A stretch of DNA of 11,681 nucleotides, from the UHGV virus genome UHGV-0168755. One strand, written 5' to 3'. Within the stretch, counting starts at the first letter, position 1, and each line of letters opens with the position of its first letter. The stretch is from a virus. Made by a program: the position numbers and the translations under genes. Positions 1,649 to 6,808 of the stretch are shown here, in pieces. The notes under the pieces are model-generated. The model was not told the DNA's origin. It made no database searches and worked only from the letters and a program-made list of their open reading frames with translations.

Positions 1649-1900
1649 TTACCCCGCCATTAAAACTAGTTCTGAGTCAAGCGCGATACCTGCTTCCAGA
1701 TCTTCTTCAGTATCCTGGAAGAAACGGTTTATGTTGCTGATGTTCTCGTTATGGAGAATCATACAGCTCGAAACCTCATCCACGTTCGTGCTTGACATAA
1801 AGCCGTTATCTGGGCGATAAGCCATGCCCAGTTCCATTTCAATCTGGTCGATTGCTAATCTGCATTGTAACTGGTCGCCATCAAAATCCTGTATGTCCAC
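1649..1900 (-). CDS. multisubunit RNA polymerase beta'-like N-terminal subunit, exon 2 (catalytic DFDGDQ segment); 3' splice site within about 1895-1925
   Basis: Translation ...DIQDFDGDQLQCRLAIDQ...PDNG... contains the universal beta' Mg-binding motif (N)ADFDGD (codons at 1874-1888). The ORF-track start is a GTG that is probably internal to the spliced reading frame. Ends with tandem stops TAA TGA. Confidence 0.7.
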   Translation of the reverse strand: MDIQDFDGDQLQCRLAIDQIEMELGMAYRPDNGFMSSTNVDEVSSCMILHNENISNINRFFQDTEEDLEAGIALDSELVLMAG

Positions 1901-2262
1901 TCCAATCCTTTTGGAGCAGGTGTGCTAAGACACCCTCCCATGCTTTCACATGGGCACAGACTATATCATAACCGTAGGTAACATTACCCGTAGGTCTCCC
2001 CCACTTCGCCGCTAAACTAAGCAGCTACTCTACTCGGTTTTACCCTTTCGATAGTCGTTGAACGATTTTCACCGCTGCTGATTATCCATTATCACGACCC
2101 TTAGCATTATTGGTTAGCATAGGTCATCTTACAAATTATTTCTGACTTTCGTCACCCTATCGGGATCGTAAGCTTTAGGAGTTACCAGCAATTCAGGGGA
2201 TACGCACTAGAGGTTTCCCGTCTAGTGGGCCAACATTTAGCATTTGGTGCTTTGATGACACG
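1898..2262 (-). ncRNA. group I self-splicing intron (ORF-less, about 330-400 nt) interrupting the beta' gene; boundaries approximate
   Basis: Read on the minus-strand sense: P4/P5 region GACGGGAAACCUCUAGUGCGUAUCCCCUG (2194-2223), R/P7 5' strand GUUCAACGACUAUC (2050-2063), S/P7 3' strand AUGAUAUAGUCUG (1957-1969), P9 hairpin GCCCAUG-UGAAAG-CAUGGG (1937-1955), then two small hairpins before candidate terminal G at 1898-1900. Beta' homology stops before this and resumes at DFDGD after it. Confidence 0.7.
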
Positions 2263-3606
2263 ATCAGAAATACGCAGAGAACATTGTGTTACATCTGTCA
2301 GTACCGATGCAATAAACAACGTCTGAATAGAAAGCTGAACCAATGTTGGGTTACGTAGAACTTCCAACATTAAACCGAATCCACCGGGGGATTCTTTAAT
2401 CAGCTCATTAATAATTTCATGTACCAACGGTACATACTGCATTGCCGCAAATGCAATGATACGTTCGCACTGCCGTGGTGTATAATCACGACGACCCAGC
2501 TTGTTCTCAATGTGAACGCTCGCCAACGGAACCAACCAACGCCAAGGCGCAATCACTTTCAACGCATCGTGAGGTTCAGAGATAGGAGAGATAGTCACAC
2601 GTCCGCCCCACGGTACGTGTGTTGACCCGAGTTTTGCCCGATAGAACCCAGGTTTACCTTCCATCACTTCCTGACGATGGTCAATATAGAAATACGCAAG
2701 TTGACGATTCGCTTTGATTGCGCGACGAATAATAAATCGCGGATCGATACGACGTGCATTCGTGTACAGCAACGCCACATTTTTTACTGCGTCGATAGCG
2801 CTGGTGTATACGGGATCGATAAAGATACCCTGTCGACGTTCCTCCGTAACGATCAGTTTCGACGAAATAATCGGAAGATGCCTTGGAAAGAATGTGAACG
2901 ATTGCTCTTGAAAGAACTCACGCCATTCTAAGCGTACACGCTCACTCTCATAACGGTTATTTTTCGTTGGTGGATAAATCTCCTTCCAAACTTCCGGGGA
3001 CGTGAGGATATTAAAGACGGTTCGATGATGGTCGATAAAGTTTCGAATACCGCGTTCGAATCCGTGCTCAATGAGTATTCTTTTCACTACCCGAGCTCGT
3101 GTCCCTTCGTCCTTTTCTGGTCGATAGTACGGATCGATTAGCCATAGAAGCAAATCAGAACCGCGCTCTACCGTCACCTTGTTACGATTGAACTTTTTCA
3201 GCTTAGAACCAAAGAAAGCATTGAAGAGAGACCAAAAACGTGGATTGATAAAGTTGCCCATCTCATCGGGAGCACGTAACCAAACTTCGGACGTAATCCG
3301 GTGTTCAGAAACAACGTGTCCACAGTGCGGGCAACGTAGCCCAAGATTGTAACGATGGGTAATAGGTGATTCGCAGGTCAAACTGCAAATAGGAGCCGAG
3401 TTGAGTGTCTCATCAACGATTCGGTTTTGAAGTATCTGGTTAATCATCTCTGACGCTTCGATGGTATCCATCGTTACAGCAACGTCATTGATAATAATCG
3501 GCGGTTTGTAGCCTTTTTCCTCCGCTTCTTGTATACAGTCACGTAACATTTTATCGTGACTAATTAATCGCCCTGAAATCCCGTAATATTCTAGTTTATG
3601 TTCCAC
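2182..3606 (-). CDS. multisubunit RNA polymerase beta'-like N-terminal subunit, exon 1 (ORF as called; the last roughly 20-35 codons before the TAA at 2182 are probably intron read-through)
   Basis: GTG start at 3604-3606 with GAGGA 6 nt upstream. Zinc finger CSLTC-x13-CPHCGHVV (compare E. coli CxC-x12-CEKCGVEV), GGRVTISPI (compare GRSVITVGP) and LRNPTLVQLSIQ (compare NRAPTLHRLGIQ), in the same order as bacterial beta'. Confidence 0.8.
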   Translation of the reverse strand: MEHKLEYYGISGRLISHDKMLRDCIQEAEEKGYKPPIIINDVAVTMDTIEASEMINQILQNRIVDETLNSAPICSLTCESPITHRYNLGLRCPHCGHVVSEHRITSEVWLRAPDEMGNFINPRFWSLFNAFFGSKLKKFNRNKVTVERGSDLLLWLIDPYYRPEKDEGTRARVVKRILIEHGFERGIRNFIDHHRTVFNILTSPEVWKEIYPPTKNNRYESERVRLEWREFFQEQSFTFFPRHLPIISSKLIVTEERRQGIFIDPVYTSAIDAVKNVALLYTNARRIDPRFIIRRAIKANRQLAYFYIDHRQEVMEGKPGFYRAKLGSTHVPWGGRVTISPISEPHDALKVIAPWRWLVPLASVHIENKLGRRDYTPRQCERIIAFAAMQYVPLVHEIINELIKESPGGFGLMLEVLRNPTLVQLSIQTLFIASVLTDVTQCSLRISDRVIKAPNAKCWPTRRETSSAYPLNCW

Positions 3607-3619
3607 GCCGAATCCTCAA

Positions 3620-3662
3620 CAAAAAAAGAGAGGGAAGGGACAGGGGGTTTTCCCCTGTCCCT
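3620..3662 (-). terminator. candidate intrinsic terminator/attenuator between the 615-aa gene and the beta' gene
   Basis: 10-11 bp stem GGGACAGGGG/CCCCTGTCCC (3637-3661) with 5-nt loop, followed on the minus strand by UUCCCUCUCUUUUUUUG. The U-run starts about 9 nt after the stem, so the call is moderate. It abuts the beta' RBS. Confidence 0.45.
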
Positions 3663-3690
3663 CAACTACTGCTTACTACTTACCAACTTA

Positions 3691-5538
3691 TCAGAAAGTC
3701 GGACGCCAGTCAGTTGCAGCGAAGGACATACCGAAATCGCTACCAAATGCGTTCGGGCCGCTACCAGACAGTGCGAAGTTCTCATTACCCGTGTTAACAA
3801 ACACAGAGTGAGTGAGGCTGTTCGCTGCGGTAACACCGTTCACCTGGAAGTTGCAGTTTTCGGTGATGTATTCCACCAGTGCTTTACCGAACATCGGGTT
3901 GATTGCCAGATCAGACGCTTCGCCAGTTACCTGCGGCTGTTTGCTACCGAACATGGACGCAGCCATTTTCAGCAGGTACAGACGCTGGTCACGCGCATTC
4001 AGATAGCGGTGAGAGTAGGACTGTGCACTAATGTAGTCGATCGCATCGCGCTGGTTGTCGCCCACTTTAGTCAGAGCGGAAACCAAGTCCATATCCTGGA
4101 AGCTACGTTTCTGGCTGTTGCTGAAATACTGACCAGAGATGGTCGGGCAACCGGCGATAACAACATGTTTGCACTCAAAGTTGTTGACATTTCCCAGCAT
4201 CGCTTTGAAGCGGGTGCTGAACTTAGTCGCGCCGTTGCTGGCCATGTTATCCAGGATGTTGAACAGGGTATACAGTGCGTTGGTGTTACCCATCCCGATT
4301 TCGCTCAGGAGAGTAGACAGACCACCAATACCGTTACCTGCACGATGGTTCACCACCAGTGCCGCAGTCGGATTAGCGAAAGTATCCAGGCATTTCTCGA
4401 TAACTTCACGGTTACCGTCGATTTTGCTCAGGTCAGGTTTTTCGCTGCCCCATTCTACATACTCCAGAACGCGGGAGAAGCGGCGATCGGTTTTGTTCAG
4501 CGACTGCATGAAACGTTCACGCCATCCGCCGATAGTGGCGATTTGTGCGAACGCGGCCAGTTCAATCAGCTGACGTTCGATAGGTGCCATTGCCCCAGAG
4601 GATTGAGAATCCATCAGAGAAACAACCACTTCGGCTTCCAGCTGACGCAGGTCCTGAGTACCGTTGGTCAGAGTTTGCGGTTTACCTTTATGGCGGAGGT
4701 TGATGTAACCAACACCTGCAACGCTCGGATAATTCTGGAGGCGTTCAGAAGAGAACAGCGTCGGGTTATTATCGTTATTGCCGGTGCGGGAATGGTCAAC
4801 CACAACCATCAGGTCAGCACGTTGTGCAGAACCGTTAACGTCAGTTACAGAACCTTCTTCAACGACACTGACTTGTGCAGTGAAGCGATCAGAGCGGGTC
4901 ATTTTCAGGTAGCCCAGGTAGCCGGAATGACGACCGAAGATACCCAGTGCAATCTGGCCCATGAGCTGGTTAGCCCATTCTTCGTTCATGGTTTTACCCA
5001 GTTCCGGTACGCAGTTCATTACCATGAACTGTACGCTCGGCAGATTGTGCTGAGTTGCAATCTGGTTAGTGATGTTGTTCATCACACCTTCTTGACTGAA
5101 CAGCTGTGCCAGGGTGTAGTAGTTTTCTTTACCGTTGATTTCGTAGAAACGGATGGATTGGCCGTGTTCGAAGAACAGGATACCGTAGAGCCATTCGTTA
5201 TGGTTATCACCAGACGGACCAGCCACATATGCAGCAGAACCCATTTCAGAGTTGATGCCGTCAATGACGCCCCAACGGAAGTTACGCAGGTAGGTGTTCT
5301 TCTCTGCCATCTTCTCAATCAGACTGGTGAACTGAGAAGCAGTGGACACAAAGGACATATACCCAAAAGCTTTATCGAAGGTGGAAATGTTTTTAGACAT
5401 TCCACCAAAAGCGTTGGCCGCATTGGTGTTATCCATAGTAGGAGCTCCCGCACCGCCGAAAGACGGAATTGGATCTGCGGCGGAACCAGCAGCACCAGTC
5501 ACAACGTCGTTTTGATTGTCAATAAACTCTTTAGCCAT
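3691..5538 (-). CDS. highly expressed 615-aa protein; candidate phage-nucleus shell protein (chimallin), alternatively a major virion structural protein
   Basis: ATG start with AAGGA RBS. Codon usage is visibly shifted to E. coli-type optimal codons (CTG, CGT, GGT, ACC, AAC, GAA) compared with neighbours. Gly/Ala-rich flexible N-terminal segment. Lies immediately upstream of, and co-oriented with, the beta' N-terminal subunit gene. Identity is inferred from size and position, not from recognised sequence. Confidence 0.7.
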   Translation of the reverse strand: MAKEFIDNQNDVVTGAAGSAADPIPSFGGAGAPTMDNTNAANAFGGMSKNISTFDKAFGYMSFVSTASQFTSLIEKMAEKNTYLRNFRWGVIDGINSEMGSAAYVAGPSGDNHNEWLYGILFFEHGQSIRFYEINGKENYYTLAQLFSQEGVMNNITNQIATQHNLPSVQFMVMNCVPELGKTMNEEWANQLMGQIALGIFGRHSGYLGYLKMTRSDRFTAQVSVVEEGSVTDVNGSAQRADLMVVVDHSRTGNNDNNPTLFSSERLQNYPSVAGVGYINLRHKGKPQTLTNGTQDLRQLEAEVVVSLMDSQSSGAMAPIERQLIELAAFAQIATIGGWRERFMQSLNKTDRRFSRVLEYVEWGSEKPDLSKIDGNREVIEKCLDTFANPTAALVVNHRAGNGIGGLSTLLSEIGMGNTNALYTLFNILDNMASNGATKFSTRFKAMLGNVNNFECKHVVIAGCPTISGQYFSNSQKRSFQDMDLVSALTKVGDNQRDAIDYISAQSYSHRYLNARDQRLYLLKMAASMFGSKQPQVTGEASDLAINPMFGKALVEYITENCNFQVNGVTAANSLTHSVFVNTGNENFALSGSGPNAFGSDFGMSFAATDWRPTF

Positions 5539-5582
5539 TTTACTTAATCCTTATAAGGTTTAATACAATTGTAGTGTTGGTT

Positions 5583-5612
5583 CACGTAGATAATATCTAG
5601 CTAAGATATTTT
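5583..5612. promoter_or_regulatory. copy 1 of a duplicated 30-bp motif CACGTAGATAATATCTAGCTAAGATATTTT in the divergent intergenic region; candidate promoter/operator
   Basis: Direct repeat with copy 2 (about 26 of 30 identical, 80 bp apart); contains internal inverted repeat ATATCT-N5-AGATAT; lies 45 nt upstream of the 615-aa gene start. Confidence 0.45.
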
Positions 5613-5662
5613 GGAATACACGTAAAACACACATAGCTTAAAATGATTAACTACCGAACCAT

Positions 5663-5693
5663 CACATAGATAATATCATTCTCAGATATTTTT
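5663..5693. promoter_or_regulatory. copy 2 of the duplicated motif CACATAGATAATATCATTCTCAGATATTTTT
   Basis: Same motif as 5583-5612 with inverted half-sites ATATC/GATAT; about 55 nt upstream of the plus-strand gene start at 5747. Confidence 0.45.
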
Positions 5694-5746: not shown

Positions 5747-6808
5747 ATGTTCAGTCAAGCCGAGTTAAACCAAGCAGCCATAAAGGGTAAATTCGAAGAC
5801 CCTTCCGCTATACAATTGGTCAGTGCCGTAAAAAATAATAATCAGCGCATTCGCAACTATTTAGAGTCCATTCAAACCCGTGTTGTGTCGGGTCATCTGG
5901 TACTCAAAATTTTAGCGGCTATCGGATATGCGGGTGAACCCAGCTACGAAGAGATCGAGTGGGCATGTCGTCGCAAGCTTTCCGATATCGGTAATGCGCT
6001 ACACCTAACTTCTGTGGGGGAGTACGGTCAAGTTTTCAACGGGATCTTTATCGAAGGGCAAGATGAAATTATTTCACTCGTCGCTCGTCCCGTCAATCCT
6101 GAACTGTCTTTTCGTGACTATACACCCGCGGTTTATCTTTATCACGAGTACACGAATCTTAACTGGGGTCTCGGGAACGGCAAACCCCGAGGCATCAGCA
6201 TTATTGAAATCAATCTGGTTGCACTGCTTTGGCAGTACGTTCTTGCAGAACAGTATTACCGAACACAACCCGAACCGATTAACCGTGTTGTTTACGCGCA
6301 ACGTCACATCATTTACCGGATGCTGCCTAGCTACATGAATATCGCTTTTTTAAATATTCATCGCGCTATCGCAGCAGGTAAAGAAGTCGAACCCGAAACA
6401 CCACTTCGTGTTATCCCCACACCGCCATTACGTGAACTTTCAATTAAACACGCAACGCAAGTTTGTAAAGCCCTCCGTGCAGGTAAACCTTTACCTGGGG
6501 TAGTCATGGCACACATTCCCCAGTTCTTTGTTGATCCGACACACCCAACCACCGCGTTAGACCGTATCCTTTTTAAGGACCCCGGTTCAACCATTCAGGG
6601 TAGTTGGCACCGAAACATCGTGAACTGGTATTGGGCGTTGTTCTGCTTACAGTTCGATAACTCGAGCATGAGCAAATACAAATCCAATCTGATGGTACGT
6701 ATAGCCCGATTCGAAGATGCGAAGATACTGGAGAAACTTACACGTTCGGCGAGAAACTATTACCGACACGAGTTAATTTTGCCATTATACCACGCATTAG
6801 AAAATTAA
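5747..6808 (+). CDS. hypothetical protein (353 aa); the only plus-strand gene, monocistronic
   Basis: ATG with AAGGAG RBS at 5735-5740 (6-nt spacer); TAA stop followed by a short hairpin (6815-6829) and a strong terminator (6862-6898). No motif I recognise. Confidence 0.8.
   Translation: MFSQAELNQAAIKGKFEDPSAIQLVSAVKNNNQRIRNYLESIQTRVVSGHLVLKILAAIGYAGEPSYEEIEWACRRKLSDIGNALHLTSVGEYGQVFNGIFIEGQDEIISLVARPVNPELSFRDYTPAVYLYHEYTNLNWGLGNGKPRGISIIEINLVALLWQYVLAEQYYRTQPEPINRVVYAQRHIIYRMLPSYMNIAFLNIHRAIAAGKEVEPETPLRVIPTPPLRELSIKHATQVCKALRAGKPLPGVVMAHIPQFFVDPTHPTTALDRILFKDPGSTIQGSWHRNIVNWYWALFCLQFDNSSMSKYKSNLMVRIARFEDAKILEKLTRSARNYYRHELILPLYHALEN

Follow-up and report, generated by a model that had tools for sequence, protein, structure and literature searches.

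The virus genome UHGV-0168755 carries a gene of 615 amino acids (aa) whose codon usage stands apart from that of its neighbours, and the locus raises the question of what this gene encodes. We analysed a stretch of 11,681 nucleotides (nt) of this genome, hereafter called the window, in which the gene lies on the minus strand beside a gene for an RNA polymerase (RNAP) subunit. A preliminary description of the sequence had proposed, from gene order, size and expected expression, that the product is chimallin (ChmA), the shell protein of the phage nucleus. Our analysis supports this identity. We put the probability that 3691..5538 encodes the ChmA of its phage, an uncultured SPN3US/Asesino-like chimallivirus of about 225 kb infecting E. 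coli, Shigella and Salmonella, at roughly 0.93, because the product is orthologous, over its full length and in its gene order, to two proteins recognized earlier as chimallins. The predicted fold, a profile-profile match and bridging proteins agree with this orthology. Both the family and the type of phage are known; the gene adds a so far unannotated member, without departing from the known mechanism or forming a new kind of system.

3691..5538, minus strand: chmA, an open reading frame (ORF) of 615 aa starting with ATG, with a predicted core at about residues 65-573 and flexible tails at residues 1-64 and 574-615

Orthology and gene order

A tblastn search with the ChmA protein matched 62 jumbo-phage records, each with one copy and all with at least 80% query coverage. 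The best phage matches show about 50% identity over 91-99% of the length and comprise Asesino gp39, SPN3US_0022 together with many Seoulvirus relatives, phiEaH2 and Stratton. Two of them have been linked to chimallin in earlier work. Erwinia phage Asesino gp039 (ANZ48052.1) is 50% identical to the window protein over 99% of the length; as a fusion with green fluorescent protein (GFP-gp039) it forms a ring enclosing phage DNA and was recognized as ChmA, and gp040 is the beta'1 subunit of the non-virion RNA polymerase (nvRNAP) (PMC11724907). SPN3US_0022 (YP_009153316.1) is about 50% identical over 96% of the length. SPN3US "gp244" was reported to be a chimallin homologue that has diverged to 10% identity with the 201phi2-1 protein (Laughlin et al., 2022, PMC9365700); ACQ60_gp244 and SPN3US_0022 are the same coding sequence (CDS) at 15768-17621 in RefSeq, that is, the gene matched by the window chmA. 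The numbering is a trap for readers of this literature: gp244 of Laughlin, ACQ60_gp244, SPN3US_0022 and gp22 of the Thomas and Heymann papers are one gene (L004 2444-4297 in our sequence set). Because of this gp22/gp244 numbering, a 2025 preprint mistakenly gives YP_009153538 as the SPN3US chimallin, an accession that belongs to ACQ60_gp022, a 240-aa virion structural protein (NC_027402.1, L011 15024-15746).

Infected cells contain SPN3US gp22 in abundance and capsid preparations show little or no trace of it; in addition, tetragonal protein sheets were observed in SPN3US lysates (Heymann et al., 2020, PMC7552025). The former observation bears on the main alternative named in the preliminary description, that the product is a major virion structural protein, either an HK97-fold capsid protein or a tail sheath. 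All that favours this alternative is the strong codon bias together with the size, and we give it next to no chance: homology to such proteins was looked for and no HK97-fold or sheath match appeared, by sequence or by fold, the SPN3US sheath gene sits elsewhere in the SPN3US genome, and the SPN3US orthologue is essentially absent from the capsid preparations.

The gene order around chmA is identical to that of SPN3US gp13-25 and Asesino gp30-42: an SH3DP protein, a divergent family-B DNA polymerase, a divergently transcribed 353-aa gene, chmA, nvRNAP beta' and two small conserved genes. The resemblance to the phiKZ locus that was originally noticed also holds, since the phiKZ record lists gp54 as "nuclear shell protein" and directly thereafter gp55 as "RNA polymerase beta subunit", an order mirrored in the window, where the beta' subunit gene starts at 3606. 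The single copy of chmA thus adjoins nvRNAP beta' in the multisubunit-RNAP context typical of chimalliviruses.

It is evident that Asesino resembles the window in several respects, all described below: chmA is flanked by the divergently transcribed 353-aa gene on its upstream side and by nvRNAP beta'1 on the other, a tandem motif precedes it, a terminator-like hairpin follows it, and its codon bias is extreme. On the other hand, half of the residues differ between gp039 and the window protein and the N-tail sequence is not conserved. Moreover, Asesino infects Erwinia whereas the window phage is associated with E. coli, Shigella and Salmonella, and the RNAP neighbour of Asesino is annotated as one uninterrupted CDS of 533 aa, unlike the intron-split gene of the window. 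SPN3US has identical synteny and a chimallin homologue, gp22, linked to the square lattice in lysates, but belongs to a different genus-level lineage, in which DNA is about 75% identical even in the polymerase gene, and lacks the RNAP intron found in the window phage.

Profile comparison and predicted fold

For sequence comparison with canonical chimallins, we used a 16-sequence family profile of the window chmA (A1; number of effective sequences, Neff, 2.5) and a profile of 24 phiKZ gp54 relatives (A2). Direct searches failed to connect the two groups, whereas profile-profile comparison succeeded: hhalign of A1 against A2 gave a probability of 90.4% and an E value of 1.4e-6 over 490 collinear columns, covering residues of about 64-597 and including the region of the first C-terminal segment (CTS1) of the phiKZ family. 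An exhaustive HMMER search with A1 among 1.84 billion representatives returned 27 clusters only. Two clusters, P0092 and P0094, bridge the families, as they match A1 and also pass the threshold of the Pfam chimallin model PF25677, with 35 and 39 bits.

The comparison with the chimallin fold, suggested as a check in the preliminary description, was made on an AlphaFold2 model built from A1. The model has a mean predicted local distance difference test score (pLDDT) of 74 and a predicted template modelling score (pTM) of 0.79, with a well-defined core at residues 65-573. In a Foldseek search of PDB with this model, ranks 1-9 were all chimallins (E 2e-20 to 4e-17, template modelling scores of 0.58-0.72), namely 7SQQ/R/S and 8IGG of 201phi2-1, 7SQT/U/V of Goslar and 8FNE of phiPA3 PhuN, and rank 10 had an E value of 0.07. 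The core is thus predicted to adopt the two-domain fold of chimallins, an alpha/beta N-domain followed by a GNAT-like C-domain.

Several results weigh against the assignment. The window protein and seven relatives did not match PF25677 (Chimallin_Phikzvirus) even at E <= 10; the gathering threshold of this model is 27 bits and phiKZ gp54 scores 1122 bits. No chimallin was matched among PDB sequences by phmmer or by hmmsearch with A1 at E values up to 10, and A1 against the single phiKZ gp54 sequence reached only 0.03. Identity to the solved chimallins and their kin, phiKZ gp54, 201phi2-1 gp105, phiPA3 gp53 (PhuN) and Goslar chimallin (PF25677; PDB 7SQQ-7SQV, 8IGG, 8FNE), is only 14-16%. Moreover, the structure was predicted from A1, which is shallow as an alignment. 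A precomputed "PF25677" tag on several homologues could not be reproduced by hmmscan and was not used as evidence. The PF25677 model does not reach the SPN3US/Asesino clade, and chmA is not to be filed under the present entry.

Such divergence, together with the failure of the Pfam model and the GNAT-like C-domain, would also suit a paralogue that kept the chimallin fold in another role, such as a minor shell part or a GNAT-derived enzyme or toxin, with a different protein building the shell in this lineage. The GNAT tRNA-acetylating toxins AtaT and TacT do give partial matches to the window protein over 120-140 residues, which provide no family assignment and no evidence of catalysis. We regard a paralogue of this kind as very unlikely, as all the 62 related phages carry one copy per genome, the gene adjoins nvRNAP beta' in the same place as phiKZ gp54, the orthologue of Asesino itself forms the ring around the phage DNA, and a bulk structural protein would account for the abundance and the codon bias.

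Tails and proposed lattice contacts

Under the ChmA assignment, the two tails deserve attention. The flexible Gly/Ala-rich N-terminal tail that had been noticed from the sequence is borne out by the model: 19 of the first 64 residues are Gly or Ala (30%), and this stretch, like residues 574-615, has pLDDT below 50 and is predicted to be disordered. Both tails carry conserved short motifs. The N-tail ends in a conserved FDxAFG motif (residues 54-59), in which A57 and F58 are nearly invariant. In the C-tail, F580, G592 and G594 are invariant and N582, F588 and S591 near-invariant in the A1 alignment, within a motif around residues 577-594 (LF.NnGgE.F.LSG.G), and another motif lies near residue 600. 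In the hhalign alignment, the CTS1 region of the phiKZ family falls opposite residues 564-597.

Protomers of 201phi2-1 chimallin are joined as tetramers through the N-terminal segment (NTS, residues 48-61), and flexible linkers carry CTS1 (590-611) and CTS2 (622-631), which connect the tetramers in a pliable square lattice; loss of these segments by deletion abolishes assembly. As judged from the model, the tails of the window ChmA are laid out in the same manner. By analogy, the tail segments would dock on neighbouring protomers: ChmA protomers would form tetramers in which the N-segment around FDxAFG (54-59) docks on the neighbour, and the C-terminal segments (about 577-594 and the motif near 600) would link the tetramers into a flexible square lattice. 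Such a lattice would enclose the replicating phage DNA and nvRNAP and exclude host nucleases. The tail sequences differ from those of phiKZ-type chimallins, and details of the lattice contacts may differ as well.

Codon usage and the reading frame

The preliminary description had taken the codon usage of the gene as a sign of very high expression, and had also listed its own Shine-Dalgarno (SD) sequence, a terminator-like downstream hairpin and a duplicated upstream motif. All these elements were found again. The codon adaptation index (CAI) refers to E. coli highly expressed genes, with the Sharp-Li 1987 weights; the claim of codon bias rests also on the reference-free effective number of codons (Nc) and on raw codon counts, and all three agree. 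The CAI of chmA is 0.60 against 0.22-0.38 in the nine other window genes, and its Nc is 36.1 against 46-57. Among raw codons, Leu is CTG in 37 of 44 cases, Arg is CGT or CGC in all 26, Asn is AAC in 43 of 53, Phe is TTC in 28 of 35, and ATA does not occur. TTA, CTA and TCA are likewise absent, although the rate in the nine other genes would predict 21 of them (P ~3e-10). In a 21.8-kb contig of the same phage, chmA is the most codon-biased of 23 genes, and the orthologous genes are equally biased in SPN3US (CAI 0.66, Nc 34) and Asesino (CAI 0.66, Nc 33.5).

Second to chmA in codon optimisation within the locus, in all the three phages (CAI 0.47-0.55), is a gene outside the window (L006:17639-18283). 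It encodes a 214-aa protein with orthologues SPN3US_0029 and Asesino gp46 and without a Pfam match, and may be another abundant early protein.

The ATG start of chmA is backed by homologues beginning with MAKEF or MVK, and is preceded by an SD sequence.

5548..5552, minus strand: Shine-Dalgarno sequence AAGGA, 9 nt 5' of the ATG at 5538, read from the sequence

The same bases are spanned on the plus strand by an uninterrupted ATG ORF of 649 aa (3598-5547), which covers the whole of chmA in the same codon register and would encode a low-complexity protein rich in Cys, His and Arg. One could therefore ask whether this frame is the real gene and the 615-aa ORF its shadow, a view that we find hardly credible. 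It is the minus-strand product that matches phrog_8316 (E 1.7e-232) and has relatives in 20 protein clusters, and all the homology (PHROG, the 62 phage records and the protein clusters) as well as the confident fold belong to it. The plus-strand frame stays open because chmA lacks TTA, CTA and TCA, the reverse complements of the three stop codons; Asesino chmA contains two codons of this kind, and the open antisense frame is not conserved there. We rejected the 649-aa frame as a shadow ORF, since only the minus-strand product has relatives, but it could be mis-called as a gene.

Putative transcription signals

Upstream of chmA, two 31-nt direct repeats account for the duplicated motif, and a hairpin lies between chmA and the RNAP gene.

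5662..5692, minus strand: upstream 31-nt repeat AAAATATCTGAGAATGATATTATCTATGTGA, a putative distal phage early promoter
5582..5612, minus strand: downstream 31-nt repeat AAAATATCTTAGCTAGATATTATCTACGTGA, ending 43 nt before the ATG, a putative proximal phage early promoter
3621..3663, minus strand: intrinsic-terminator-like hairpin and T-run, with a G+C-rich stem of 12 base pairs (bp) and a 5-nt loop, between chmA and the RNAP gene
5747..6808, plus strand: conserved, divergently transcribed 353-aa gene (phrog_3938, E 3.5e-124), orthologue of SPN3US_0021 and Asesino gp38

Repeats of this kind were matched in none of 200 shuffles. Their core, (T/A)GATATTAT(C/T)...GTGA, occurs twice upstream of chmA in the window phage, SPN3US and Asesino, in the same place. 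It also occurs once each, in sense orientation and in intergenic positions, upstream of other genes (L006:2061, L001:14991 and L002:15069), and further motif positions are L001:6795 and 6888 and L002:6850 and 6942, in three related phages altogether. The motif, (T/A)GATATTATCT..GTGA, holds an internal inverted repeat AATATCT...AGATATT and probably represents the consensus of early promoters in these phages. In RNAP-encoding jumbo phages, a phage-specific AT-rich motif of about 10 nt is centred near position -10 of the early promoters and is used by the virion RNAP (PMC7598289). A sigma-70 promoter scan upstream of chmA gave nothing above chance, and a host-RNAP promoter for chmA was rejected on this ground in favour of the phage-specific motif. 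Because of these AT-rich early motifs and the lack of a sigma-70-type promoter in the scan, the duplicated motif is best read as tandem phage early promoters.

The hairpin has its 12-bp stem at 3663-3635, followed by CCCTCTCTTTTTTTG, and a folding energy of -27 kcal/mol (z = -3.8). In SPN3US and Asesino a hairpin with T-run occupies the same position with changed stem bases; that of SPN3US was missed by a consensus terminator scan and was located by reading the sequence.

These elements suggest the following course. Early in infection, chmA would be transcribed as a single-gene unit from the two tandem copies of the motif (core AGATATTATCT..GTGA), which are probably read by the injected virion RNA polymerase, and the hairpin and T-run, a putative terminator, would halt transcription ahead of the RNAP gene. 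Very high translation would follow from the host-optimal codons and the good SD sequence. Because of the tandem promoter motifs, the host-optimal codons, the SD sequence and the dedicated terminator, chmA would appear to be a monocistronic, very highly expressed early gene.

The promoter-bearing intergenic region of 208 nt is common to chmA and the divergent 353-aa gene. This neighbour belongs to a PHROG of unknown function, has no Pfam match, and is transcribed divergently from chmA also in SPN3US and Asesino.

The RNA polymerase gene and its intron

Downstream of chmA, the RNAP gene is interrupted by an intron.

join(3606..2239, 1888..1649), minus strand: nvRNAP beta' N-terminal subunit gene, 535 aa when spliced, phrog_2987, 69% identical to SPN3US_0023
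1889-2238, minus strand: group I intron of 350 nt within the nvRNAP beta' gene

Rfam RF00028 matches at 1937-2248 with 56.6 bits against a gathering score of 50. Exon 1 (3606-2239) ends in ...IKAPNA and exon 2 (1888-1649) starts with DFDGDQ... in a different frame, so that the intron sits exactly between NA and DFDGD of the catalytic NADFDGD motif. Three contigs of the same phage (L008-L010) lack exactly these 350 nt and encode an uninterrupted 535-aa protein; the joined exons match this intron-less protein at 534 of 536 positions and restore the NADFDGD motif. As expected of group I introns, T is the last base of the 5' exon and G that of the intron; within the intron no ORF exceeds 45 aa. 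Gene callers split the nvRNAP beta' gene into ORFs of 474 and 83 aa.

Proteus phage 7 (L005, 3867-4727) has a larger insertion at the same RNAP site, which encodes an HNH/NUMOD1 homing endonuclease, and related intron sequences occur in RNAP beta genes of other Seoulvirus phages, Photobacterium phage PDCC-1 and PhiPA3. From these sequences, it looks like a mobile intron family targeting chimallivirus RNAP genes.

Distribution and significance

Contigs from metagenomes and from isolates match the window at 98.7-99.6% identity. The exact ChmA protein has an NCBI entry, EPD5645443.1, which calls it a hypothetical protein and assigns it to E. coli. Its 90% cluster draws on assemblies of Shigella flexneri, Shigella sonnei, Salmonella enterica and E. 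coli, where the contigs measure 224-228 kb. Relatives that share 77% nucleotide identity have been deposited as "plasmids" of 222 kb, from E. coli and Enterobacter ludwigii (NZ_CP173450.1, NZ_CP134650.1). "Seoul-like" persistent jumbo phages have been reported in bacterial assemblies (bioRxiv 10.1101/2024.12.31.630880), and the occurrence of the window phage in isolate assemblies is consistent with persistent carriage of such jumbo phages in cultures. The nearest isolate phages in the collection are about 50% (ChmA), 69% (nvRNAP beta') and about 75% (DNA polymerase, nucleotides) identical, and ChmA is 71% identical to its nearest sister cluster. A further possibility, which we consider rather doubtful, is that these phages form a distinct uncultured genus-level Seoul-like lineage that persists, as episome-like contigs of about 225 kb, in E. 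coli, Shigella and Salmonella isolates of clinical and food origin, in which the diverged tails could give different lattice contacts and the double promoter could tune nucleus formation in non-lytic carriage.

The value of the present assignment is practical: it closes an annotation gap and adds no new biology, and the gene is as expected in such a phage. The chmA clade bears the label "hypothetical protein" in all the 62 phage records and likewise among those cluster members from bacterial assemblies that are listed and named, and the curated Pfam chimallin model misses it. Because of these labels and this miss, nucleus-forming enterobacterial phages are easily overlooked in genome and metagenome surveys. 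Finally, finding ChmA identifies a contig as that of a chimallivirus, which replicates under shelter from DNA-targeting defences; this matters for phage therapy and for the persistence reported for these phages in bacterial isolates.

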